Shown here: in pieces, positions 8,463 to 22,590 of the stretch
How the letters are laid out: each line of letters opens with the position of its first letter
Position numbering within the stretch: position 1 is the stretch's first letter
From: Escherichia phage CMS-2020a
DNA length: 64,000 nt
Direction: 5' to 3' (one strand)
Sequence record: CP053388.1
Notes under the pieces: generated by a model
The model's database searches: none
What the model was told of the DNA's origin: nothing
The model's input: only the letters and a program-made list of their open reading frames with translations
Made by a program: the position numbers and the translations under genes

Positions 8463-11400
8463 TCACGTCTTAATGGTTTCTGCTACGTCGGCTAATATCG
8501 CTTCTAGTCGTTCTCCCTCTTCAGGTCTGAAGTAAAGAATGTTGGGGTTAAACCCGTAAAAGACAGTAACGTCAAGGTCTGGAAGATACTCCTTCCTGCC
8601 GACCAAATCGGATGGCTTGTTTTTGTTGTTAAACAATGCCGTTGCCCGGCTACCACACGTCAGCACATAGGTCGGGCGCACCAGATTGATCTCTTCACGC
8701 ATAAAGTCGGTGAACTGGCCGATCTCGTCTTTGGTGTAGTCCTTTTCTTTGTCTTTCACCTTTTTGCAAACGCCTGTGACATAGAGATCGCCCATGCGCA
8801 AATCCCCAGCCGTCAACAGCTTGGCCTTAAAATCGTCGTATCCGTTCTCCATAAAGTAACCGGTTCGAGCATCATTGCCGTTCGCATTGTCCAGAATGAT
8901 CATGATTTTCGGCTTAATACCAATGCTGGGGCGGATTAGTTCATCACCTAAGCCCATTTCAGCCGCCATCCGCGTCATGAGTACGTTAATCTCAGCCGAA
9001 CGTTTGGGGTTCATCTCAAACGGACGTGAGGCTTTAACTGCGTCTATGACAAGGTCTCCCATCAATTCAGCCTGGTCGCGTAGGCGCTCTGGATCAGTTG
9101 CTGGCAGACTACCTGGCTCGATGGATGCAAACGCCCCTACTTTTTGCAGCGATTCGCGCACTCGACTATTACAGGCACGTTTCTCGACAGCTTCTTCGAA
9201 TTGCGCCAGTGACTCGAATTTGCCGCCAACTTTTTCTCGCGCTCTCATGATGGCTTGGCAGCCATTCTCAGAACACCCCTTCACAGCAGAGAAGGGCGCA
9301 TACAGCACCTGGCTGCCATCTTCAAGCGTGCGGATCTCGATTCGGTTAGATGACACGTTAACGTCTGGTGGCAATACGCGAATGCCATAGGTCAGCGCAT
9401 CCTTAACCAGCCCCTGGTGCTTATCCTCGCCCAGAATGGTGAGCGCAGCAGCGAAGAACTCAGCAGGGTAATGTGTCTTTAACCACATAGACTGATAGCT
9501 GATTAAAGAATAAGCAACACTGTGTGATTTGTTGAAGGCATATCCACCGAACTTCTCAAAGGCGTCCCATATTTCTTGGGCTTTTTCCTTACTGAGACCT
9601 TCCTGTTCAGAGACGATCTCCACGTAGTCTATGCCGTCACTAATAGCCTCGCTGTAGCTTCTACGCTTACCGTCTGAGCAATCCAGTTTTGCGTGTTTGT
9701 GAACCTCTACAGTACCTCCATTTTTGAGTGACAGTGTCACCCAGCCTGCTTGTGCTCGTTCTACAAAATCGCTGCCGATCGCTTTCATCTTATCCATGTT
9801 CTTTTTACCGATAGCGGAACGCAGAGCGTCTGCTTCGGCCATAGAGAACCCGGCAAGTACTCGGGAACTTTGCATGATTTGTTCCTGATAGAGCAAAACA
9901 CCATTAGTCTCCCGGGTGACTTCCTCAAGACGCGGATGAATTGAATGTGGAGCCATGAAGCCTTTGGCCACGGACACATAATCGTCCAACATGCCGGATT
10001 GAATCGGGCCAGGTCGGAAGAGCGCAGTCGTAGCAACAACCGTTTTAAAGCTCATTGGCTCAATTCCACCACCTAAATCTTTAAGCAGCTTGCGCATTGG
10101 GCCTGATTCAAGCTGGAAAACACCTTGAGTGTACCCAGCAGCAAAACCATCCAGCACCTTGCGATCTTCAAGAGAAATGGCATCAAGATTGATATCTTCA
10201 CCTGTGTTCTCTTTTATGTAGCGTTTTGCACTATCGAGCAAATCGAGAGTTGCCAGACCGAGTACGTCCAGCTTAATTAGGCCCATAGCCTCGCAGTAAC
10301 GCTTGTCAAATGCGATACAACGCGCGTCACCACGGCGTTCAACCGGTGTACGTTCTGTCAGAGGAACACCTGCTACGATCATCCCTGCCGCATGTCTACC
10401 AAAGCCACGCATAAGGCTTTGTAACTTGCAGGCTGCATTGAATGCATCAGGATATTTTGTTGCGTATTTGTCGAGACTTGCCAGTTGTTCGCGCAGCTCC
10501 TCCAATGGAAGGCTATCATCCTCGACGTTCTTCAGCTCTTTTGATACCGCCATATCTGCGGACTCCACACCATAAATACGAGCGGTATCACGTAGTGCAG
10601 AGGCTGCGCCCAGGTAGGTGAAGTTCGGAATGCCTGCAACGTAATCTTCGCCGTAGCGTTCATTCAGATACTCGATCACCTCATGGCGACGTGCCTGGCT
10701 GAAGTCCAAGTCCGCATCCGGCAAGTCGAGACGCTCAGGGTTGATGAAACGCTCAAACAGAAGACCGTGACGGATTGGGTCGACGTTGGTTATGCCTATG
10801 CACCACGCCACCAGAGAACCGGCAGAGGAACCACGACCAGGCCCAACGGGAATGCCAGTTTCACGACTATGATTCATCAGATCGCGCACCATCAGGAAGT
10901 AACCACAGAATCCCAGGCGAGTCAGCGTGTCCATTTCGTACTTTAGCCGCTCAACATAAACCCTGTTCTCAGAAGCAGGTGGTGTGTAGCCAAACTCTTT
11001 TGTGGTAAGACGTTTACGCAGCCCTGCAACAGCCAGTTTCATCAGCGTTGCAGGCTCGTCGTCTGCCATCTTTGGCAGTGCTGGCGGCAATTCATGCCAG
11101 CGCCATGTGCAGGCATCGATAATGGTATCCTGCGTTGTTGAGGCCATTGCAGCTGTTACCGGCACATCCATGCGAACGGAGAAGGCTTTAAGCGCCTCAA
11201 GGAGATGGCGGCGACCATTGACGGCGTTATCTCGCTGGTGGGGGATACGCAGACGATGCGGCTGGTCGATTTTTATGTTGTTCGTAACCATGTGCGCAAT
11301 GTCTTTAATGTCTGCATCGTCGATCGATTCGTAATAAGCGGGATAGAACGCCACTGGCTCTATTTTCAATGCGCTGGCGACTTTCATCGCCCGGACGTTA

Positions 11401-11969
11401 ATCTGGTCGTAGAATGGGGTAGGGTGCGGATAGACCACACTATAGAAGTTGTCTTTTCCACCCGCTGTAATCAGTGTGCTTATGATTTTTGCAAAATCGT
11501 TGCGTTGGAACACGCTACCGATGTCGGAAGTAAGCAGGATGATGTTGCCTTTGGCATATGTAGAAACCAACTGTTCGAGCGAGAGACGCGGTACAAAGTA
11601 GAACTGTTCTCGTGTGTTGGCCGCCGTCATTAGTTCGCAGATGTCGCGATATCCTTTCTCATTTTTAATTAGAGCGGTAAACGAGTAGTTACGTCCTCGC
11701 TCTAATGATTCCATACATCTCATAGATTCTTTAGCAAGTTTAGCCCGGTGCTCGTATGTGGGATCATCAACAATGTTTAGTTTCACACCACAAATAACCG
11801 CCATGTCGTCACCAGCGGCACGTTGTAGTGGAATAACGCTCGCAATATTCATGCTATCTGCTGAAATTACAGCGGTGTAGCCAGCTTCTCTGGCAATCTT
11901 CACCGCGTTTTCTGCTTTTAGAGCCGACTCCCCAAGTGAGAAGTCAGTTCGAACCATCAGTGCCTTCAT
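8463..11969 (-). CDS. dnaE: DNA polymerase III alpha subunit (DnaE-type, PHP domain N-terminus)
   Basis: 1168 aa; PHP-like N-terminus, conserved polymerase core segments such as GLIKLDVLGL and NKSHSVAYS. Confidence 0.85.
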   Translation of the reverse strand: MKALMVRTDFSLGESALKAENAVKIAREAGYTAVISADSMNIASVIPLQRAAGDDMAVICGVKLNIVDDPTYEHRAKLAKESMRCMESLERGRNYSFTALIKNEKGYRDICELMTAANTREQFYFVPRLSLEQLVSTYAKGNIILLTSDIGSVFQRNDFAKIISTLITAGGKDNFYSVVYPHPTPFYDQINVRAMKVASALKIEPVAFYPAYYESIDDADIKDIAHMVTNNIKIDQPHRLRIPHQRDNAVNGRRHLLEALKAFSVRMDVPVTAAMASTTQDTIIDACTWRWHELPPALPKMADDEPATLMKLAVAGLRKRLTTKEFGYTPPASENRVYVERLKYEMDTLTRLGFCGYFLMVRDLMNHSRETGIPVGPGRGSSAGSLVAWCIGITNVDPIRHGLLFERFINPERLDLPDADLDFSQARRHEVIEYLNERYGEDYVAGIPNFTYLGAASALRDTARIYGVESADMAVSKELKNVEDDSLPLEELREQLASLDKYATKYPDAFNAACKLQSLMRGFGRHAAGMIVAGVPLTERTPVERRGDARCIAFDKRYCEAMGLIKLDVLGLATLDLLDSAKRYIKENTGEDINLDAISLEDRKVLDGFAAGYTQGVFQLESGPMRKLLKDLGGGIEPMSFKTVVATTALFRPGPIQSGMLDDYVSVAKGFMAPHSIHPRLEEVTRETNGVLLYQEQIMQSSRVLAGFSMAEADALRSAIGKKNMDKMKAIGSDFVERAQAGWVTLSLKNGGTVEVHKHAKLDCSDGKRRSYSEAISDGIDYVEIVSEQEGLSKEKAQEIWDAFEKFGGYAFNKSHSVAYSLISYQSMWLKTHYPAEFFAAALTILGEDKHQGLVKDALTYGIRVLPPDVNVSSNRIEIRTLEDGSQVLYAPFSAVKGCSENGCQAIMRAREKVGGKFESLAQFEEAVEKRACNSRVRESLQKVGAFASIEPGSLPATDPERLRDQAELMGDLVIDAVKASRPFEMNPKRSAEINVLMTRMAAEMGLGDELIRPSIGIKPKIMIILDNANGNDARTGYFMENGYDDFKAKLLTAGDLRMGDLYVTGVCKKVKDKEKDYTKDEIGQFTDFMREEINLVRPTYVLTCGSRATALFNNKNKPSDLVGRKEYLPDLDVTVFYGFNPNILYFRPEEGERLEAILADVAETIKT

Positions 11970-15589: not shown

Positions 15590-15687
15590 GGCTAATCCTT
15601 TGTTATGAAAACAAATTATTTACTAGTGTGTTTAATGTAGCACTGCGCGAACAGGGAACTAAGCCATTCGCGCAGGGAGAAGAGGGG

Positions 15688-15900
15688 TTAACAGATTCTG
15701 ACGGCTAAAGACCCGGAGCCGGTATTGAGAAGCGTGAAGCGTTTGTTGTTAAATTCGAATATAAAGCCAGTTGTGTCATTCACACCAACCTGAATCTGCT
15801 CATTCGGTAGATCGGTGAGGATGTCAGCTACACACTCATCAGCTAATTTCTGTACGTGTCCGATCTCAAGAGCGATTAGGCTGGAAATAGTGGTGTTCAT
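15688..15900 (-). CDS. hypothetical protein (70 aa), first gene of leftward early operon
   Basis: ORF adjacent to AT-rich divergent promoter region 15900-16150. Confidence 0.35.
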   Translation of the reverse strand: MNTTISSLIALEIGHVQKLADECVADILTDLPNEQIQVGVNDTTGFIFEFNNKRFTLLNTGSGSLAVRIC

Positions 15901-16151
15901 TCAATCAATCCATTCTAACTTATACTATGGTAAGGAATACTACTAAAATTTATATCAATACTGAATACATTCATATCATATACAAGTTAATTTTCTTACC
16001 TGTTTTGGGCTAATTTTTCTCCGTGCAATGGCCTTTAACCGGTCTTTTAAGTGCCTATCGAAAAAAATGATAATAGCTTTACAACCCTAACCTTTGATGT
16101 AATATCGGTAAGCACTTACCAGTGAGAATTGAACGCGCAAAGGTTGTAACA

Positions 16152-16538
16152 ATGTCTGACAACAAGATTGAATTTATAGAAAGTCGCTATGCTGCTTTTA
16201 TCGCAGGGCTGATTGAATCCTCACCTATGAGTCAGGCCCAAATAGCCAGACTTATTGGTTATAAAAATGCCAACAACCTTTCTTTAATTAAAAGTGGCAA
16301 AATTCCATTGCCTATCGATAAGGTTCGTCCGTTGGCGCTGGCGCTGGGTATTGAGCCAAGTCGTCTTATGATGATGGTGCTGGAAGAACGCCAACCTGAA
16401 CTCGCAGCATTTTTATACAAAGAAGGCACCGCTCCTCTTAACGAGGACGAAAAACAGGTTCTTGCTGCATATAACGAGCGATTCGGTAAAGAGAAAGGCG
16501 CATCACAAAAGGTTGTTGAGGCTATAAAGTCTCTATGA
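16152..16538 (+). CDS. XRE-family helix-turn-helix transcriptional regulator (candidate repressor)
   Basis: HTH segment SQAQIARLIGYKNANNLSLIKSGK; start placed at ATG 16152 with AAGG RBS (track ORF starts at GTG 16122). Confidence 0.65.
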   Translation: MSDNKIEFIESRYAAFIAGLIESSPMSQAQIARLIGYKNANNLSLIKSGKIPLPIDKVRPLALALGIEPSRLMMMVLEERQPELAAFLYKEGTAPLNEDEKQVLAAYNERFGKEKGASQKVVEAIKSL

Positions 16539-17636
16539 AAAATTTACACGAATAAGCTCTGTTGATAGACGATCTCCCTTGAATTTGTGGTCAATTTCGT
16601 CTAAATCCGGTTGCTCTACAATTGATGCGATGTACGTCGAGAAACTTTCTAAGGCGTCTCGCATCTCGTCCATATAATCGTGCCGGTCGTAGACTCGATC
16701 TATCCCCTCAAGACTGTGGTTCATGATTTTGCGTGATACCTCCTGGCTTATGCCTAATGCTGGGAAGTAACTACGCGCAGTACGGCGCAAGTCTCGGGGT
16801 GTAAATGGCTCAAGCTCCATCAGTTCTGGTCGTTCCAGAATACGACGTAATGCCTGGGCTATTGCCACTTTAGACATAGGAAGGTCTTTCCCGATTTTTT
16901 TATTCGAAGGCACGAGCCACTGGCTGCCTTTACCGTATTCGAACAACTCTTCAATACATGTGCGCATTAATGTGCTTAAAGGCAGCGAATGCTCACGGGC
17001 AGATTTGTTCCTCTTGCCTTGATTCCAAACCCCACGCTTAAGATTGAACTCACTTTTTTTAGCCCGCAGTACTTCGTCAGGTCGTCTTGCGGATACAAGA
17101 CACAGCCTGGCCGCCCATTTTGTACCAGCGCACACATTGAAGTAGTCCCATATATTCCAGAACACCCATACCTCTGCGTCGGTCAGCTTCCGCTCGCGAG
17201 GTGTGGGCTTTGCGCCACCGGCAACTTTGTTTAGTGACATATCGTTTAACGGTGACACGTCTATCATCCCCTGGAAGGCGCACCAGCTAAGGAACTGCTT
17301 CATCAGAGAGAAAACGCGGCGGCCCATAACAATTTTGCCATCCAGTATTAGTGGGTTGACCAGTTGGTTCACCATGAACCTATTAATGTCACTTACTTTT
17401 ACATCGGCAATGTGCGGCAAAACATGTATCAAAATACAATGAACAGCGATCTCTGGCCGACGTCTGGTTATCAGCAGAGATAAGCGAGTGAATAACATGA
17501 ATGCGTCCGAGAATCTCATGTCATTGCTGACCTGGGAGATCATAACGGCCTGCATTTGAGATGCTCTTTCGAGATACTCAATCGCCTCTTTTGAGGTGTT
17601 CTCCGCAGCGCGTGCTCTGTCAAAGCTATTTTTCAT
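16533..17636 (-). CDS. tyrosine site-specific recombinase (integrase/resolvase family)
   Basis: C-terminal R...H-x-x-R...Y pattern (RDLRRTARSYF, NHSLEGIDRVYDRHDY). Confidence 0.65.
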   Translation of the reverse strand: MKNSFDRARAAENTSKEAIEYLERASQMQAVMISQVSNDMRFSDAFMLFTRLSLLITRRRPEIAVHCILIHVLPHIADVKVSDINRFMVNQLVNPLILDGKIVMGRRVFSLMKQFLSWCAFQGMIDVSPLNDMSLNKVAGGAKPTPRERKLTDAEVWVFWNIWDYFNVCAGTKWAARLCLVSARRPDEVLRAKKSEFNLKRGVWNQGKRNKSAREHSLPLSTLMRTCIEELFEYGKGSQWLVPSNKKIGKDLPMSKVAIAQALRRILERPELMELEPFTPRDLRRTARSYFPALGISQEVSRKIMNHSLEGIDRVYDRHDYMDEMRDALESFSTYIASIVEQPDLDEIDHKFKGDRLSTELIRVNFS

Positions 17637-17809
17637 ATGACAATCACCGAGTTACGCCGATTCACTGTATAAGTAAACAGTATATTAGGCATAGATTCTT
17701 ATAGGATCAAGAGTAAAAGTAACTCATTTTCACTAATGATTCCATACATAGTAGGTATGGAATCATTTAAGGGAGGAATTTAAATTCTGAGGCGTTATTA
17801 ATATGATTG

Positions 17810-18220
17810 TTAAGGGTTAGTGAGAGCTTGAAATGCGGCCGCGTAGGCAGCGATATCGACCATAATTTTTGGATCTTTCGCGTACTGATGTGCGTTGTTA
17901 GGGAAGATTGCCAATAGGCTATACACATCTTGGAAATGTGCATGTTGACTGTAAACGAGTGCACGGTCGCTTGTGCAATTGAATCTGCTGCGGCTGCTGG
18001 TTCGTTCTTGCTTCGTGAACAAGAGATGAACGTGATAGACGCGGGAGGACACGATAGCACCAGGAGCCGTATACGGGCCATCTTTGCCGAATATGGCTGG
18101 GTACATGCCTTGTTTAAACGACTTGAAATCGTTGAGTAACGTAATCTCTAAGTCAGGCTTTATATCGAAGGTCGGCTTTAAAAATTGGGCGTAACTATCA
18201 CTGTTCCATGTGATCTTCAT
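17810..18220 (-). CDS. YafO-like toxin candidate
   Basis: motifs RVYHVHLL, FNCTSDRALVYSQHA, LLAIFPNNAH match my recollection of E. coli YafO; recall-based only. Confidence 0.45.
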   Translation of the reverse strand: MKITWNSDSYAQFLKPTFDIKPDLEITLLNDFKSFKQGMYPAIFGKDGPYTAPGAIVSSRVYHVHLLFTKQERTSSRSRFNCTSDRALVYSQHAHFQDVYSLLAIFPNNAHQYAKDPKIMVDIAAYAAAFQALTNP

Positions 18221-18229
18221 CGTTCAACC

Positions 18230-18838
18230 TCAATGGAATGAGAAGTTGGCGAAGACGTCCTCATCAATGAGGCCAGTCTGCGATTCGATGACGTCTACGT
18301 CGTTAAAACACTGATTTAAAATCAATAGCAGATCAGAGATAGCTAAACGATACTCAGTTACAGAATCGCTCAAGCGTTTCAAATATGGATGAGGTTGCTC
18401 AGAGTCGCGAATCAACTTGTTAACGAATCCCTCCAAACCACGAATGGTCAGGTCAACGTTCTTCAGTTCTTCGTAACGACTTTCACCGAAGTTGCTGCGA
18501 ATCTTTTCCGCTTTCCATCCAGAGATGGCATGGGCTAAGCGAACGTGTTTCGCCGTCAATTCTGCGAGCTTGCTTTCAATCTTTGCCAGCTGTGCCGCAT
18601 CGCGGTTTTCTTGAACAGGAATAGCCGCAGTGCTCACATAGGTTTGTGTTTTGAATCCTGTGAATTTCGCAGAGGGCTTCATCGTGCCACGGAAGCGTCG
18701 ATATCCACGCGGTTCAATAAAATCACGCCCAGATTTAGCTGTAGGCTTTGCGTTTGAAAAGCGTGAAGCGTTAGAGGTCACAGTAGCAAGGGCATTGCTA
18801 ATGACACTCATATCTTCTAGGCAATTTTCTAAACGCAT
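18230..18838 (-). CDS. hypothetical protein (202 aa), upstream partner of YafO-like gene
   Basis: ORF 9 bp upstream of toxin candidate on same strand. Confidence 0.45.
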   Translation of the reverse strand: MRLENCLEDMSVISNALATVTSNASRFSNAKPTAKSGRDFIEPRGYRRFRGTMKPSAKFTGFKTQTYVSTAAIPVQENRDAAQLAKIESKLAELTAKHVRLAHAISGWKAEKIRSNFGESRYEELKNVDLTIRGLEGFVNKLIRDSEQPHPYLKRLSDSVTEYRLAISDLLLILNQCFNDVDVIESQTGLIDEDVFANFSFH

Positions 18839-18933
18839 AAAACCTCTTAACTGCTCAATGGCTCGTAACTAAGTGTACGCTGTGCTGATGAAAGCTACAA
18901 ATAATAAATGGCCCCAAAAGGAGCCGTATTGTA

Positions 18934-19179
18934 TTACAGAGTGCTCGCAAAAGCAGCAAATTCTGTGTATCCGCCAATCGGCTGGCCATCGATCAGCACC
19001 TGGGGGATCGTCTCTACCGGTTTACCAACAATTTCGCTAAGTTTTTCCTTCTCGATACCGGCAGTGGTGATGTCGATGTACTCATAATCACCGTAGCCAT
19101 GTCCCTTTAGTTGCTTCGCCAGCTCGACCGCACGTTTGCAGTATGAGCAGTTATCTCGTCCGTAGATAGTGATCGTCAT
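18934..19179 (-). CDS. glutaredoxin / NrdH-like redoxin
   Basis: CSYC active-site motif near N-terminus, 81 aa thioredoxin-fold length. Confidence 0.8.
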   Translation of the reverse strand: MTITIYGRDNCSYCKRAVELAKQLKGHGYGDYEYIDITTAGIEKEKLSEIVGKPVETIPQVLIDGQPIGGYTEFAAFASTL

Positions 19180-19352
19180 AACTTAACAGATGCCTTTATA
19201 AATATTGATTCGAACATATCAGACTATACTACAAACAGATTTTTTTGATAAGTATGTAGTAACTTATTGATTGACTAGTAAGCAATTGAAGTGATTACGA
19301 CAATAGATTAGAGTAAGGATTGCCTTGAAATGTACATTTTATAGAGGTTTTA

Positions 19353-20261
19353 ATGATTGGTAAGTTGTCTGATTCTTTGATTGAAAATAAATACAACGAA
19401 TTTAGAGAAGAAATATCTTTACTTTTTGACTATTTAAATCAGATAAATGATACAACAAAGAAAAATATAAAACGTCTTCTTAAAGAAGTGGAGTATGCAC
19501 AGAATCCAGATACTATTATTAATATTAATGAAACTATTAAGATTAAGTGTGGCACAACGTTAGCTCGCCATTTATGTTCAAACCCATATACAGGTTCAAC
19601 ATTAGAGATAGGTAACAGCGCCATTGATTTAGAAGAAAAGATAAGATTGTGTAATACTTTGAAAAATAAACAATATCAGTGGGTTATTACTGAAGCCTAT
19701 GAGTTACTGGAAGACTATATTGAGGCAATATATGTCTATACTGTATGTGTTCGAAATGATTTATGGTCCTCAAGTGATTTTGGTAAGGTTGAAGATGATG
19801 AAATTGGGAAAAGGGAAGTTTATTACAGATTATTAAAAGCAAAAAGTAACCCATCGAAAAAAATAACTAAAATTTTCAGAAATAAAATACCTGGTTTCAA
19901 AGAGATAGAAACAAACAACAAGATTGGCAAAAACTATCGCTTTAACATCAAGCTAATTGAACTACTAAGACATACAATAGTACACAATAGTGGACGATTC
20001 AATGATACAGAAAAATTTATAAATAAGGTTTTAGATGAATCTGAAATAAACGGTAAGAAAAGAGTTATTGGAGAAAGAGCTGTTAGAAGTTACATTACTA
20101 AAGTGCAAGAAGATGATATTGTGATGCTCTTAGAAAGACCATCTGAAATTTTAGGTTCTTTTGGTGGGTATTTTAACAGAGCAAAATTTTTACTAAGTGA
20201 TATTTTAGAATACTCACTAATCATTAAAGAAGAACTAAAATCATATCTAGGCAATCATTAA
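19353..20261 (+). CDS. AT-rich foreign gene; HEPN-motif protein, possible Abi-like abortive-infection/defence protein
   Basis: GC content visibly far below neighbours; own AT-rich upstream region and terminator; RHTIVH fits Rx4-6H HEPN motif. Confidence 0.5.
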   Translation: MIGKLSDSLIENKYNEFREEISLLFDYLNQINDTTKKNIKRLLKEVEYAQNPDTIININETIKIKCGTTLARHLCSNPYTGSTLEIGNSAIDLEEKIRLCNTLKNKQYQWVITEAYELLEDYIEAIYVYTVCVRNDLWSSSDFGKVEDDEIGKREVYYRLLKAKSNPSKKITKIFRNKIPGFKEIETNNKIGKNYRFNIKLIELLRHTIVHNSGRFNDTEKFINKVLDESEINGKKRVIGERAVRSYITKVQEDDIVMLLERPSEILGSFGGYFNRAKFLLSDILEYSLIIKEELKSYLGNH

Positions 20262-20265
20262 CAAA

Positions 20266-20287
20266 AAAGGGGCCGAAGCCCCTTTGA
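20266..20287 (+). terminator. intrinsic terminator AAAGGGGC-CGAA-GCCCCTTT plus T-run
   Basis: GC stem-loop and T tract 5 bp after stop of 19353..20261. Confidence 0.7.
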
Positions 20288-20439
20288 ATTTTGCGCTGAA
20301 AAAAGTGTTGCTAGGATGTTAGCAAGCTATGGTTAAGAACGTCTGCCGTAATTGTCTATCACAGCGTTGAGCGGTCTGGTTTATGTTAGCGGAGTCTTAA
20401 TCTGGTTGATTAAAAGGCCAAACCGCTCAACGCTGTGTC

Positions 20440-20526
20440 TGGCGGAGAGTAATGGAATCGAACCATCATCGCTTGCGCAATGGGACGGTTTTCAAGACCG
20501 CTTGAGCACCATGCTCCCTACTCTCC
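20440..20526 (-). tRNA. tRNA-Ser (anticodon TGA), type II with long variable arm
   Basis: hand-folded: acceptor GGAGAGT/ACTCTCC, anticodon loop CTTGAAA, T-loop TTCGATT, encoded CCA; D-arm somewhat atypical. Confidence 0.55.
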
Positions 20527-20750
20527 GGCCGTTGTGGTGGCCGGTACTGAATCTCCGGCATACGGTGCAGCCAATTAGGACTACGGACGATCACCGCTCG
20601 CGAAAGGGAAGATTTGCGGCCGCATTTCCCTAACACCCAAGAAAGCTATCGCATCAGTCTGCGAATCCACCACAACGGTAAGATCACTACCTTTCGACCA
20701 GTCATTGTGCACATGAACGACGATTAACCGTAATGATCTTATCGTTGTAT

Positions 20751-20826
20751 TGGTGCCGGTTAACGGACTCGAACCGCTGACATCCTGCTTACAAGGCAGG
20801 CGCTCTACCAACTGAGCTAAACCGGC
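20751..20826 (-). tRNA. tRNA-Thr (anticodon TGT)
   Basis: hand-folded cloverleaf: acceptor GCCGGTT/AACCGGC, D-stem GCTC/GAGC, anticodon loop CTTGTAA, T-loop TTCGAGT, CCA encoded. Confidence 0.8.
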
Positions 20827-20830
20827 AATT

Positions 20831-20917
20831 TGGTGGGGAGTGATGGAGTCGAACCACCCGAGTCGCCATGACAGTAGATTTACAGTCTACACCGCTACCT
20901 CTACGGACTAACTCCCC
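20831..20917 (-). tRNA. tRNA-Tyr (anticodon GTA), type II
   Basis: acceptor GGGGAGT/ACTCCCC, anticodon stem-loop GTAGA-CTGTAAA-TCTAC, long variable arm, T-loop TTCGACT, CCA encoded. Confidence 0.7.
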
Positions 20918-20922
20918 TAAAT

Positions 20923-20997
20923 TGGCGATGGTGGGTGGATTCGAACCACCGACCAGTTGGTTAACAGCCAACTGCTCTACCGCTGAGCTACACCATC
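20923..20997 (-). tRNA. tRNA-Asn (anticodon GTT)
   Basis: clean cloverleaf: acceptor GATGGTG/CACCATC, D-stem GCTC/GAGC, anticodon loop CTGTTAA, T-arm GGTGG-TTCGAAT-CCACC, CCA encoded. Confidence 0.85.
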
Positions 20998-21775
20998 AAT
21001 TCGGCACTGCCAGTATTTATTACTCAACAGTGCCAATCGCGACGGTTTAGTTTCTGCCAGGAAACGCACCGCTACTTGCACTTTTCGTTAGTGCCAGACG
21101 CTTTCGACTTCGCTCAATAGTAGAAGGCAAAATCTTTAAGTAGATGATGTTTCTGAGGACAGCACCTACTTTGTTATTTATACAATGTAATGTATGGAAT
21201 CATTTGTTGTGAAAACAGGCACCAATGGCAACAGTGGTTAAACCTACACAACAATCCTGTCTTCACAACGTTGAGGCCACTACTCCGATTGAATGTTTGC
21301 CCAACATGTTACATATCAACGCTCGCCGGTATCTCTGTGAATAGAACCTTAGAATTGATAAAAATGTAATGGCCTCAACGTTGTGTGCTGGCTAACCATA
21401 CCAGCCGGGCTACGTCGCCGCTTTTTAACCCAGTATAAACGACATAATTGAACAAAATGACGTAACAGGATGGGCGGTCAGTGGCTAAGAATCCGGGAGT
21501 CATATGGAGTTGAAAATATACCGACCGCCCATTCTGTTACTTCATCGGAGGGAACACTCATGTTCCCTCCTGCGTTCTGCAATCACACTCGCTCAGTGTG
21601 TCCCATTTCGGTAACGAGGCTGGAAACTGACCTCGCTGGTGTTTGGCTTATTAGGCTACTGCCAGATAGACTTCTTCGTTTGCACTTGTATTTAAGTTCA
21701 AACAGTCGCGTCTCAACGAAAACAAAGTCATCTTATACATAAAAGATAAGTAAGTAAATACTTATCTTTGTGTTT

Positions 21776-22066
21776 TTATTCGGTTGTGGCTTTTTTGATC
21801 AAGGCCACTCTACGACTAGGTGTTCTTGTGATGGTGGCAGTGAACCGTTTCGCTTGGATAGTAATGGTTTCGTTCTCCTTAAGTTGCCCGTAGCGAGTTT
21901 CCACCAGGGTGCCAAGACGCCACAGACCATCATCGATACGTTTATGACTGGCAAATTTAATCAGCAGCAGTTTTACGACTAACTGACCTACGTAAAAGGC
22001 GAATGCGACTCCGGCCGCTAAGAAATAGGTGGCCAACCACCATTCCCAAGAAGTTAAATTGCTCAT
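21776..22066 (-). CDS. membrane protein (96 aa)
   Basis: N-terminal transmembrane segment; start overlaps stop of upstream small ORF. Confidence 0.45.
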   Translation of the reverse strand: MSNLTSWEWWLATYFLAAGVAFAFYVGQLVVKLLLIKFASHKRIDDGLWRLGTLVETRYGQLKENETITIQAKRFTATITRTPSRRVALIKKATTE

Positions 22067-22215
22067 TTTATAACCTTTGTTTCATGAACTACCCGATACA
22101 CGCGCTTTCCGATGCACAGTGTTTTGCTTTTAAGTTCCTGCTTAATTAAATCACGACAGATGCCGAAGCCGATAAGGAAGCCACCCATAAAAGCTAATGA
22201 GATGTATGGAATCAT
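22063..22215 (-). CDS. small membrane protein (50 aa), not in supplied ORF track
   Basis: hand-translated MIPYISLAFMGGFLIGFGICRDLIK...; ATGA overlaps with both neighbours. Confidence 0.3.
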   Translation of the reverse strand: MIPYISLAFMGGFLIGFGICRDLIKQELKSKTLCIGKRVYRVVHETKVIK

Positions 22216-22427
22216 TTTAACACTCCTGATTCTACTAATTGCTGTAGCAATACTTTCCCTTTATCAGTTAACTGGTAGTTGGCCGAGCACCACGTTTCAG
22301 AAACGTTTGCAACCAACCCTAACCGCTCTAACTTAGCTCGCGTTTTAGGCTTCCAGTACTCAGGGAACTCCGGCCACTTACTGATTTCATGAAGCGTTTC
22401 CTTCTCCCGCTTACTTAATACGATCAT
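22212..22427 (-). CDS. hypothetical protein (71 aa)
   Basis: ORF translationally coupled in chain of small genes. Confidence 0.4.
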   Translation of the reverse strand: MIVLSKREKETLHEISKWPEFPEYWKPKTRAKLERLGLVANVSETWCSANYQLTDKGKVLLQQLVESGVLK

Positions 22428-22590
22428 CCTTAATCTCCTTCACGGTGTTGGTTATTTCTACAATGCGATAAATACGACCGCGTCTTTCTATAACACCGCT
22501 TTTAATGTAGTCATTGATGCAACTGGACATCACCACAATACCTATGAAAAAACCAACTGCTAAAAATGCAATCATCCAGCCGAGCATCAT
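22411..22590 (-). CDS. small membrane protein (59 aa), not in supplied ORF track
   Basis: hand-translated MMLGWMIAFLAVGFFIGIVVM...; start ATG overlaps ligase stop (ATGA). Confidence 0.3.
   Translation of the reverse strand: MMLGWMIAFLAVGFFIGIVVMSSCINDYIKSGVIERRGRIYRIVEITNTVKEIKDDRIK

Follow-up and report, generated by a model that had tools for sequence, protein, structure and literature searches.

A recombinase gene and an adjoining palindrome

The stretch of DNA analysed here (64 kb, hereafter the window) belongs to an SSU5-like phage-plasmid whose closest relative is Escherichia phage Cyrano. A tyrosine recombinase of 367 aa (Int) is encoded on the minus strand at 16533..17636 and matches Pfam PF00589 (E = 6.8e-10) and PHROG 1 (integrase). 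It is accompanied, at 15688..16538, by a 70-aa ORF (15688..15900, minus strand) and an XRE-type HTH gene (16122..16538, plus strand) that is convergent with int; the order 70-aa ORF, XRE-type HTH gene, int was also found in Xenorhabdus and Providencia phage-plasmids. The initial annotation had placed a palindrome with a 7-nt spacer about 100 bp from the recombinase start, and this description was confirmed. The palindrome, hereafter referred to as site P (17735..17767), lies 98 nt upstream of the start codon and consists of two perfect 13-nt arms, AATGATTCCATAC (17735-17747) and GTATGGAATCATT (17755-17767), on either side of the spacer ATAGTAG (17748-17754). Folded as single-stranded DNA, P forms a perfect 13-bp stem (-11 kcal/mol, z = -7).

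No sequence match of Int to any solved structure was found. Its AlphaFold model (pLDDT 87) is that of a two-domain tyrosine recombinase, and Foldseek revealed lambda Int on core DNA, Tn1549 Int, Xer and IntI as the best structural matches (E ~1e-7), compared to ~1e-2 for Cre. Alignment of 43 homologues demonstrated that R185, R284, R285 and Y316 are invariant and that K211 and H307 are nearly so; R185, R284 and Y316, together with K211 and H307, are the putative catalytic residues.

Linkage of the palindrome to the recombinase

The palindrome was present in 80 viral contigs. In 79 of them a recombinase homologue (59-100% identity) starts 43-99 nt away, always divergent and facing the site; the one remaining contig has the site at the locus edge. 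A perfect palindrome occupies the same place in 54 of 59 genome homologues at least 45% identical to the recombinase. Homologues that are 44-52% identical have a palindrome in this place with both arms changed to TGACTCCAGAC and a spacer of 7 nt, and no palindrome was found in 21 homologues at 27-31% identity. Across the family the arms are either TGATTCCATAC or TGACTCCAGAC, the latter differing at two positions in both arms, with one hybrid. Every labelled complete record of a distant homologue is a plasmid. Plasmids of Erwinia and Pantoea retain both recombinase and palindrome and lack the XRE gene and the 70-aa ORF, which points to the recombinase, rather than the XRE protein, as the partner of the palindrome.

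Of 5426 complete E. coli genomes, 252 contain P; each time it is on a plasmid, with a single copy per replicon and none on chromosomes. A second P site, even a degenerate one, was not found in the replicons searched, and no plasmid dimer or cointegrate carrying two P sites was seen. The arms are invariant and the spacers differ by lineage (ATAGTAG, CTAAAGA, TTAATAG, CTTACAA, CTACCAA and TTACATA). Between elements with the same flanks (L003 compared with L040, and L042) the spacer was found flipped in situ.

The likely int promoter (17665..17710, minus strand) contains blocks that we take, from consensus sequences, to be a -35 element TTGATC (17710-17705), separated by 17 nt from a -10 element TAATAT (17687-17682), and a LexA-type box, CTGTTTACTTATACAG (17680-17665), just past the -10. 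A promoter scan of the sequence did not list this promoter (8/12 matches); all three blocks are conserved in every type-1 lineage (83-100% recombinase identity). The box is the sole CTGT-N8-ACAG in the 64-kb window and was present at 4/4 type-1 loci from genomes, compared to 0/54 type-2 loci. This suggests that int is LexA-repressed and SOS-controlled in SSU5-type phage-plasmids, in which case production of the recombinase would be largely confined to the SOS response.

A binding site shared by the recombinase promoter and a cluster of small genes had been proposed in the initial annotation. This was supported in so far as the palindrome accompanies the recombinase gene throughout the family and has the anatomy of a tyrosine recombinase core site. 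A role as a promoter operator was rejected, since P is some 60-92 nt upstream of where int transcription likely starts and persists without the XRE gene.

Homology breakpoints at the outer arm

On its other side P bounds a variable cargo region (17768..20921). In the window this region comprises a gene for a YafO-family toxin (17810..18220, minus strand), a 202-aa ORF, a glutaredoxin gene (18934..19179, minus strand), a 302-aa ORF of 30% GC (19353..20261, plus strand) and genes for tRNA-Ser, tRNA-Thr and tRNA-Tyr (20440-20917, minus strand). Homology of 96-97% to Cyrano, CMS-2020a and PhiR41_1 stops at 17767/17768, which is the outer edge of the arm. Flanks of 150 nt were clustered for 38 elements whose recombinases share at least 98.5% identity: those adjoining the recombinase make up a single cluster at 97% identity or more, and those on the cargo side split into six unrelated clusters. 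The cargo-side flank (17768..17792, plus strand) holds a loosely conserved element, a T-run with AAT(C/T)T(G/A) after it (TTTAAATTCTGA at 17779-17790 of the window). It recurs at roughly +10 to +23, counted from the arm, in each of the six flank families, which are otherwise unrelated, and in other lineages.

Single copies of the arm sequence

The arm sequence also occurs away from P. Three copies of a 14-nt sequence, GTATGGAATCATTT, had been listed in the initial annotation; all three are exact, at 17755-17768, at 21192-21205 and, for the third, at 22204-22217 instead of 22205-22218. The exact 12-mer ATGATTCCATAC has five copies in the window because a fourth locus, 11705-11716 (plus strand) within the PolIII alpha ORF (8463..11969, minus strand), had been overlooked. 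A degenerate copy, TTGATTCCAAAC, at 17019-17030 (plus strand) within the recombinase gene had likewise not been listed. By an arithmetic estimate, about 0.008 exact 12-mers are expected by chance per 64 kb on both strands, or ~0.01 per genome. When up to two mismatches to GTATGGAATCATTT were allowed, 5 matches were found against 0.59 expected, and none of 100 shuffles equalled that number. The whole 108-kb Cyrano genome has the motif (up to one mismatch) at the same five places and none elsewhere.

Half-site E (11705..11716, plus strand) is antisense in the PolIII alpha gene, the coding strand of which reads ..TGT ATG GAA TCA T.. (C-M-E-S-L), and its ATAC end faces P. Every lineage that can be aligned has E unchanged, the one with a 60% identical recombinase included: 0/12 columns vary, compared to 45/89 in the flanks, and the invariant block of 14 nt includes synonymous positions. 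Half-site C (21192..21203, minus strand) is non-coding, about 195 nt 5' of tRNA-Asn, inside a weak promoter-like match TTCACA-N18-TACATT. It stays ~165-195 nt from tRNA-Asn in every lineage despite diverged flanks, with one mismatch in SSU5 only. Half-site D (22204..22215, minus strand) forms the first four codons of a 50-aa membrane protein gene (22063..22215), in agreement with the earlier observation that the reverse complement of this copy holds the ATG (22213-22215) and that the product begins MIPY. The ATG overlaps the TGA stop of an upstream 71-aa ORF, and D covers the overlap. One of its 12 columns varies (a synonymous TAC>TAT in two sequences), compared to 61/89 in the flanks.

All three half-sites are identical to one arm of P, lie no more than 6.1 kb from it, face it and are conserved at the nucleotide level. 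No rearrangement or synteny breakpoint was found at E, C or D; collinearity across E holds for 242/243 E. coli plasmids and across D for 210/210. Lineages with the other arm type have no lone half-sites, which places these outside the basic mechanism. The initial suggestion that the copies mark duplicated 5' regions of small genes was not upheld. Alignment revealed no wider similarity between the flanks, only the first 12-15 nt are common to the copies across lineages, and the settings are unrelated (E is antisense in PolIII, in one reading frame; D spans a small gene's start codon; C is in non-coding DNA next to tRNA-Asn). A 20-nt identity between 11704-11723 and 22198-22217 is confined to the lineage of the window. 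Judging from this pattern of conservation, E, C and D are probably neither duplicated gene starts nor chance occurrences and were kept by selection as half-sites. The degenerate copy F (17019..17030, plus strand), which covers codons V-W204-N-Q of the recombinase gene, is probably fortuitous: it carries one mismatch in lineages of 83-86% identity, drift is seen at its synonymous positions, and the genes of type 2 do not follow their own arm there (7.8/11 matching positions, compared to 7.4/11 for the other type).

Proposed function of the sites

We consider it likely that P is the core recombination site of the adjacent recombinase and that E, C and D are selected single half-sites. For P itself, the linkage and co-variation make it very probably the DNA target of the neighbouring tyrosine recombinase, in a Cre/loxP-like arrangement of an SSU5-type phage-plasmid; the pair seems not to have been described before. 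Anatomy, linkage, co-varying arms, breakpoints and nucleotide-level conservation are observed, while binding, catalysis, biological role and SOS control are inferred. Each 13-bp arm would bind one recombinase monomer, with strand exchange across the asymmetric 7-bp spacer. A single site per replicon, in a family confined to plasmids and phage-plasmids, makes the task that Cre/loxP performs for P1 the most likely one. P and Int would turn plasmid multimers back into monomers and might also circularise incoming terminally redundant phage DNA; P probably serves multimer resolution or genome cyclisation. As a side effect P would be a hot spot for crossing-over between co-resident relatives, as loxP is in P1 crosses, which would account for the switch in cargo genes precisely at the arm. 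E, C and D may bind recombinase monomers for regulation or architecture rather than for crossing-over, though this role is a guess.

Several observations count against the lox-like reading. Flipped spacers are an abnormal product for tyrosine recombination, and dimers or cointegrates with two P sites did not turn up among the plasmids. Box II of Int is R281-D-L-R284, while in many members of the family it is H-x-x-R. The conserved T-run/AATCT element on the cargo side is unaccounted for, and a LexA-repressed promoter sits oddly with a maintenance function. Binding of the lone sites is made less plausible by the fact that tyrosine recombinase monomers usually bind isolated half-sites weakly.

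Variable cargo starting at the arm would also be explained if the SOS-induced recombinase inserted circular cassettes at an attI-like P. As in integrons, a tyrosine recombinase gene with a LexA box is followed by an adjoining site and variable genes beyond it, and one and the same YafO cargo adjoins different spacers across lineages. The first cargo gene of Cyrano is, moreover, very strongly expressed in the lysogen, at 723x background (PMC9928086). However, P is a perfect palindrome and not of attI-like build, it is present once per replicon, no second full or degenerate site flanks the cargo, there are no attC sites, attC-like repeats or cassette array, and the far ends of the cargo rejoin the backbone at differing, non-specific places. 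IntI is not the closest fold to Int, and exchange at P between co-resident relatives followed by homologous recombination would give the same pattern. We therefore regard an integron-like platform as unlikely. That the lone copies are functionless leftovers, either duplicated gene starts or old hybrid sites, or chance occurrences, is very unlikely. C and D do both start with ATG ATT CCA TAC AT, SSU5 retains E and D without a recombinase, and type-2 lineages have no lone sites. Yet three exact 12-mers lie within 6 kb of P where ~0.01 is expected per genome, E and, for the most part, D allow no change at synonymous positions while neighbouring codons vary, C is retained amid diverged non-coding DNA, and none of the three coincides with a synteny breakpoint. 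A mutated C is unique to SSU5, which seems to be a deletion derivative of recent origin, its junction being present in no PLSDB plasmid.

An RNA motif, with P as a terminator or 5'-UTR hairpin and the lone copies pairing (for example PolIII mRNA or an sRNA with the start of the 50-aa gene), is highly improbable in spite of the perfect 13-bp stem, the start codon covered by D, the 20-nt complementarity of E in PolIII mRNA to D in the window lineage and the strongly structured DNA beside C (z = -3.7). The arm sequence, not merely its pairing, is frozen over 59-100% protein identity, with two arm types in the whole family; a U-run after the stem is missing in most lineages; and P is upstream of the conserved int -35/-10 and so probably outside the int mRNA. 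Complementarity of E and D past 15 nt is lost in other lineages (3-5/7 positions match), and TAC>TAT in D has no compensating change elsewhere. Least probable of all, P and the lone copies would be operators of the neighbouring XRE-type repressor. Usual HTH operators are far narrower than two 13-bp arms separated by 7 bp, the arm type changes with the recombinase clade, and Erwinia and Pantoea plasmids have int and the palindrome with no XRE neighbour, even though the HTH protein is encoded convergently with int and, in Cyrano, bears a putative-repressor annotation and is expressed in the lysogen (PMC9928086).

Comparison with known systems

Like Cre/loxP of P1, the proposed recombinase and core site pair a phage-plasmid tyrosine recombinase with a simple target adjoining its own gene, one per replicon, and P resembles loxP in having two 13-bp inverted arms around a short asymmetric spacer. 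Cre acts in multimer resolution and cyclisation (PMC7969092, PMC10250229). Targets of Cre-type enzymes are palindromes less than 1 kb from the gene; of 17 such sites predicted, 8 recombined in E. coli (PMC10250229). Unlike Cre/loxP, P has a spacer of 7 nt instead of 8, Int falls outside the Cre clade, int has a LexA box, and additional lone half-sites lie kilobases away. The other Cre-type relatives compared were Dre/rox, Vika/vox, Nigri/nox, Panto/pox and YR1-12.

In TnpI/IRS of Tn4430 and Tn5401, an inverted-repeat core is accompanied by extra copies of the same binding motif, and in Tn5401 single copies in the distant transposon ends regulate rather than recombine. These systems resolve transposon cointegrates, whereas the window has neither a transposase nor terminal repeats and its lone sites are in essential-looking phage genes. 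The sfx sites of the R64 shufflon, recognized by Rci, have a 7-bp spacer and only one conserved 12-bp arm, so a lone arm could in principle be a working site. Shufflon sites, however, invert frequently, while the plasmids here are nearly all collinear across E and D. Action of recombinase-family proteins at isolated sites without recombination is represented by the XerD-binding sites (XDS) of Bacillus subtilis and by two phage repressors with a recombinase fold, SPbeta YopR and phi3T SroF. SroF is among the structural matches of the Int model, although weak (E ~1e-2); unlike such repressors, Int keeps the residues expected for catalysis and gives no sign of regulating anything.

Flp/FRT of the yeast 2-micron plasmid is also plasmid-borne and has 13-bp arms, with a third, non-essential arm copy in FRT. 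This copy is adjacent, unlike E, C and D, which are kilobases away. FRT differs further from P in its 8-bp spacer, its eukaryotic host and the presence of two sites per plasmid in inverted repeats, which serve copy amplification. The FRT arm GAAGTTCCTATAC resembles the P arm AATGATTCCATAC, a likeness that we treat as a lead only.

Genomic context and copies of the motif

The nearest matches to the region are Escherichia phage Cyrano (pLF82, 97.5%) and phage CMS-2020a (96.5%), with Klebsiella phage-plasmids and Salmonella phage SSU5 as more remote kin, and the window is therefore a piece of an SSU5-type phage-plasmid of ~108 kb. Such elements are common in enterobacteria and carry resistance, toxin and defence genes as cargo. 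Nearly every gene around the palindrome studied here lies on the minus strand. The PolIII alpha gene (8463..11969) is followed by CobS-like and CobT-like genes, a 70-aa ORF, an XRE-type HTH gene (16122..16538, plus strand), the gene for a 367-aa tyrosine recombinase (int, 16533..17636, minus strand), the palindrome and a cargo block; then come four tRNA genes (20440-20997), ~750 nt of structured non-coding DNA, small membrane-protein genes and a DNA ligase gene.

The initial annotation described a 14-nt sequence present three times. The copies at 17755-17768 and 21192-21205 are exactly where they were reported; the third had been placed one base too high and lies at 22204-22217, where it does cover the ATG of a 50-aa ORF. 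The palindrome AATGATTCCATAC-ATAGTAG-GTATGGAATCATT, hereafter referred to as P, was confirmed at 17735-17767; 98 nt separate it from the start codon of the recombinase gene. A fifth copy, absent from that annotation, was found as the exact 12-mer core ATGATTCCATAC at 11705-11716 inside PolIII alpha, and a copy with two mismatches lies at 17019-17030 inside the recombinase gene. When up to two mismatches are allowed, the 14-mer has 5 matches compared to 0.59 expected. In the whole Cyrano genome the 12-mer with at most one mismatch occurs at the five homologous places only, all inside 10.5 kb. The recurrence of the motif is far beyond chance. The idea that it marks duplicated 5′ ends of small genes had to be abandoned: the copies are found in three different settings, and neither the flanks nor the reading frames are related. 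The finding is real and goes beyond the earlier reading of the motif.

The palindrome accompanies a tyrosine recombinase

Viral contigs were scanned for both arms separated by any 7-nt spacer, which gave at least 80 loci. In 79 of the 80 listed loci a recombinase homologue (59–100% identity) starts 43–99 nt from the site and, in all 79, reads away from it; in the remaining locus the site lies at the edge of the stored DNA. Homologues with 44–52% identity, from Xenorhabdus, Providencia, Photorhabdus, Morganella, Rahnella, Ewingella, Hafnia, Erwinia and Pantoea, have a perfect palindrome with a 7-nt spacer at the same position in 54 of 59 loci. Their arms are TGACTCCAGAC (type-2) instead of TGATTCCATAC (type-1), with the same two positions altered in both arms, and a hybrid arm TGACTCCATAC is present in one Biostraticola locus. 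No such palindrome was found with 21 remote homologues (27–31% identity). The Erwinia and Pantoea copies reside on ordinary plasmids lacking both phage genes and the XRE neighbour, which leaves the recombinase as the only constant partner of the palindrome. An XRE operator at P was rejected because int and the palindrome are found without the XRE gene.

Arms of the TGATTCCATAC group are frozen, and flanks and spacer vary by lineage (spacers ATAGTAG, CTAAAGA/CTAAGGA, TTAATAG, CTTACAA, CTACCAA and TTACATA/TATATAA). Frozen arms, a free spacer of fixed length and arms that change together with the protein clade are what should be expected of a recombinase core site bound by a dimer. If the palindrome were a plain RNA or DNA hairpin, drift would be expected to produce many compensatory changes instead. 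An Rfam search for a known RNA family returned tRNAs only. We conclude that P very probably serves the adjacent recombinase as its target. With its 13-7-13 layout, 98 nt from the start codon, it falls among the inverted-arm targets (11–15-bp arms, 6–8-bp asymmetric spacer) located near the gene of their enzyme. The pair is a Cre/loxP-like arrangement from another branch of the tyrosine recombinases, conserved across Enterobacterales plasmids and phage-plasmids. Recombinase and palindrome thus belong to a well-known kind of system; the pair itself is apparently undescribed, and neither arm sequence was found in the relevant papers searched. It would add a recombinase/target pair from a clade unrelated to Cre, with a 13-7-13 site and two natural specificities two arm positions apart, which might be tried out for genome engineering.

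The spacer is nearly symmetric, with the pattern xTAxTAx, and occurs in either orientation relative to the gene, even where both flanks are identical: PhiR41_1 has CTACTAT and another relative (L040) has ATAGTAG between flanks that are the same on both sides. Ordinary tyrosine recombination does not flip the spacer. The flip might arise via template switching at the hairpin or via a rare antiparallel exchange. In all cargo-side flanks, which are otherwise unrelated, a T-run and AAT(C/T)T are found ~10–23 nt past the arm; these sequences might serve as an accessory site or belong to a promoter.

The recombinase belongs to the lambda/P4 branch

Pfam assigns a catalytic domain to the protein (PF00589, E = 6.8e-10) and, weakly, a central core-binding domain. 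Among 43 homologues R185, R284, R285 and Y316 are invariant and K211 and H307 nearly so. We take this set to comprise Arg-I (in an R-x-x-E context), the beta-hairpin Lys, Arg-II, His-II and the nucleophilic Tyr. Position 281, occupied by His in many family members, is Arg, i.e. the catalytic set R-K-H/R-R-H/W-Y of the tyrosine family is present with R at 281 instead of H.

A PDB sequence search with the recombinase detected no solved structure. The best fold match of an AlphaFold model (pLDDT 87) is lambda integrase on its core site (E = 1e-7), followed by Tn1549 Int, Xer proteins and IntI; Cre chains rank 39 or lower (E ~1e-2 or worse), and SroF, a repressor of SPbeta-like phage, is a weak match. 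Membership in the Cre clade was rejected, as PDB gave no sequence hit and the fold rank of Cre is far below that of lambda Int. The N-terminal 70 residues are predicted to be helical in the model and contain neither a Pfam match nor an arm-binding domain; remote P4-like homologues carry PF13356. Together, the fold ranking and the N-terminus without an arm-binding domain point to a ‘simple’ recombinase of the lambda/P4 branch rather than to a relative of Cre.

P is a single plasmid-borne site at the boundary of the cargo

The 96–97% homology to Cyrano, CMS-2020a and PhiR41_1 runs for almost 10 kb and ends at 17767/17768, position 17767 being the last base of the outer arm of P. In 38 elements with a recombinase identity of at least 98.5%, the 150 nt on the recombinase side are at least 97% identical throughout, and the 150 nt beyond the site belong to six families that are unrelated. 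The far junctions of the cargo with the backbone differ and lie at glutaredoxin, at the tRNAs or past the ligase. A crossover at P between co-resident relatives, with homologous recombination elsewhere finishing the exchange, would leave such a sharp boundary on one side and a ragged one on the other. Tyrosine recombinases are among the persistent genes of the SSU5 group (PMC7969092). Identification of the target site of this recombinase would account for cargo turnover at one precise point.

P is present in 252 of 5426 complete E. coli genomes (~4.6%), one site in each, on plasmids of ~105–115 kb and at no chromosomal place in any of the 5426. The labelled records of the distant homologues are plasmids without exception, and a search of the window and seven relatives turned up no second P site, not even in degenerate form. 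Phage-plasmids may carry dimer-resolving recombinases (PMC7969092). One plasmid-borne site per replicon is expected of a plasmid multimer-resolution system, and P fits a role in multimer resolution or cyclisation in the manner of Cre/loxP. P gives experimental access to how stable SSU5-type elements are and how they recombine.

Several other classes of site-specific systems were considered. One site per plasmid, with neither a chromosomal partner nor a cassette array, argues against both integration and an integron-like array. Integration of the lambda attP-attB type would need a chromosomal partner, absent from the 5426 complete genomes; in addition, the extra sites in this region repeat the core-arm sequence, whereas the arm sites of lambda-type integrases differ from the core. 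An integron would need an array of cassettes with an attC site at the end of each, and neither the window nor its seven relatives contain a second site, even in degenerate form. A protelomerase acting on a telRL-like site, as in N15, goes with a linear plasmid with hairpin ends, a large TelN-like enzyme and a long perfect palindrome without an asymmetric spacer; the relatives here are circular records, the enzyme has 367 aa and the spacer is asymmetric. Inversion of the shufflon (Rci/sfx) type at the lone arm copies E and D described below was rejected, as E. coli plasmids are collinear across E in 242 of 243 cases and across D in 210 of 210.

The probable int promoter and candidate SOS control

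All lineages with 83–100% recombinase identity keep, between the site and the start codon, TTGATC, 17 nt, TAATAT and CTGT-N8-ACAG. From the consensus sequences we take TTGATC-N17-TAATAT to be a sigma-70 promoter and CTGT-N8-ACAG to be a LexA box. The candidate box (17665-17680) directly follows the conserved −10 and is the sole example in the 64-kb window. Elements of Yersinia pestis, Kluyvera and Buttiauxella also carry it; the lineage with 60% recombinase identity and all 54 type-2 loci do not. On this basis the recombinase of SSU5-type phage-plasmids is probably SOS-induced, as is Cyrano, which is induced by ciprofloxacin (PMC9928086). Promoter and box together span 17665-17710 (minus strand), and the −35 element includes a GATC (Dam) site.

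P lies ~60–92 nt upstream of the presumed int transcription start, with the conserved −35 downstream of it, so P is not an operator that occludes the promoter. A scan for promoter matches near P gave 7 compared to 10.3 expected, i.e. chance level. In the Cyrano lysogen the first cargo gene past the palindrome (CYRAN_43, 9905-10459 of the Cyrano locus) is reported to be expressed 723-fold above the prophage background (PMC9928086), an indication that a strong promoter at P or close to it reads outward.

Conserved lone copies of the arm

Three lone copies, E (11705-11716, plus strand, within PolIII alpha), C (21192-21203, minus strand, beside tRNA-Asn) and D (22204-22215, minus strand, at the start of the 50-aa gene), are each identical to one arm of P; in the window lineage they extend by the base before the arm and by AT after it. 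All lie within 6.1 kb of P with the ATAC end facing it, like nested copies of its arms, and are conserved in every alignable TGATTCCATAC-group lineage, including the one with a 60%-identity recombinase. At E, 0 of 12 columns vary compared to 45 of 89 in the flanks (p = 5e-4); a 14-nt block is invariant, synonymous positions included, and third codon positions in the flanks all vary. At D the corresponding variable columns are 1 of 12 and 61 of 89, and at C the 12-mer is kept in non-coding DNA with diverged flanks. The PolIII segment around E is a variable loop, and the Providencia version differs and is free of the motif; selection thus acts at the level of the nucleotide sequence. Half-sites in coding sequence are the unusual part of the finding, and their frozen synonymous positions pose a puzzle about further roles of the recombinase. 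One viral contig (IMGVR_UViG_2802429232_000002) has a 9-nt tandem duplication, CATACATCT, within E, which lengthens PolIII alpha by three codons.

Not a single lone copy occurs in lineages with TGACTCCAGAC arms, and the half-sites are therefore an addition found in the enterobacterial SSU5 clade only. The idea that the lone sites change along with the arm type was rejected on the same grounds, and the degenerate copy inside the recombinase gene (17019-17030) does not track the arms. That copy is partly forced by the invariant Trp204 codon, its synonymous positions drift, and we regard it as fortuitous.

If the lone sites were crossover points, scars or att remnants, breaks of synteny should fall on them, and they fall on none. 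Nor are they degenerate full sites: at 6–8 nt spacing the sequence beside them matches a second arm at only 0–5 of 12 positions. In the window lineage E and D share the arm and a further 7 nt in inverted orientation, which might suggest inversion between them; no inverted arrangement was found in >200 complete plasmids, and the 7 nt are not kept in other lineages. Restriction of this 20-nt identity to the window lineage also argues against a conserved RNA duplex.

SSU5 lacks the block corresponding to 15688-20921 (the 70-aa ORF, XRE gene, recombinase, palindrome, cargo, tRNA-Ser, tRNA-Thr and tRNA-Tyr) and retains E and D; it alone has a mutated C. The junction (11625-11688 of the SSU5 locus) lies exactly at the tRNA-Asn 3′ end, not at C. 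Since this junction is found in no PLSDB plasmid, SSU5, the group's type phage, seems to have arisen by a recent deletion, which weakens the argument that lone sites persist there without the recombinase. In PhiR41_1 the tRNA/small-gene/ligase region with C and D is lost, and its unique cargo contains a new lone 15-mer including ATGATTCCATACATC (15591-15602 of the PhiR41_1 locus), which faces the palindrome. A sequence akin to the recombinase-side flank of the palindrome, TTTTCACTAAT, is found ~40 nt from the new copy.

Our best guess is that recombinase monomers bind E, C and D for a regulatory or architectural use. As precedents, Tn5401 has single TnpI motifs in its ends, Bacillus has XerD-binding sites, and SPbeta-like phages have repressors with a recombinase fold. 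A bolder and rather unlikely extension is that an SOS-induced recombinase would serve two purposes, recombining P and binding the lone half-sites in the replication genes of the phage itself (PolIII alpha, the promoter region of the tRNA cluster and the small-gene/ligase operon), and would in this way help to set the switch between plasmid and lytic states. If true, a recombinase would double as a site-specific regulator acting via half-sites in coding sequence, with selection strong enough to freeze synonymous positions.

Cargo and neighbouring genes

The first cargo genes (17810-18838) are a YafO-family toxin (PF13957, E = 5e-22) and, upstream of it, a 202-aa ORF that matches no known family and might act as an atypical antitoxin. 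The plus-strand 302-aa ORF (19353-20261) has 29–30% GC in surroundings of ~45% and is followed by a strong terminator-like hairpin (20266-20285). It looks recently acquired; its sole match is a PHROG of unknown function, and PADLOC gave no hit. A search of the cargo for defence systems gave no match. The tRNA-Thr/tRNA-Asn segment (20745-20997) is 93% identical to that of phages P7 and D6 and 79% identical to that of N4-like phages, and the tRNA cluster seems to move among unrelated phages.

The non-coding DNA between tRNA-Asn and the small genes (21200-21570) contains three long inverted repeats (21206-21219/21256-21269, 21264-21283/21366-21385 and 21457-21482/21520-21545). Its minus strand folds far better than shuffled sequences (z = −3.7), Rfam contains no matching family, and the region may encode an undescribed RNA or form a DNA structure. 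The small membrane proteins of 50 and 59 aa encoded next to it (22063-22590) are paralogues (33% identity, E = 3e-6), each with a hydrophobic N-terminal helix and a (K/R)-(V/I)-Y-R-(V/I)-V motif, and their genes sit among overlapping small genes with DNA ligase downstream.
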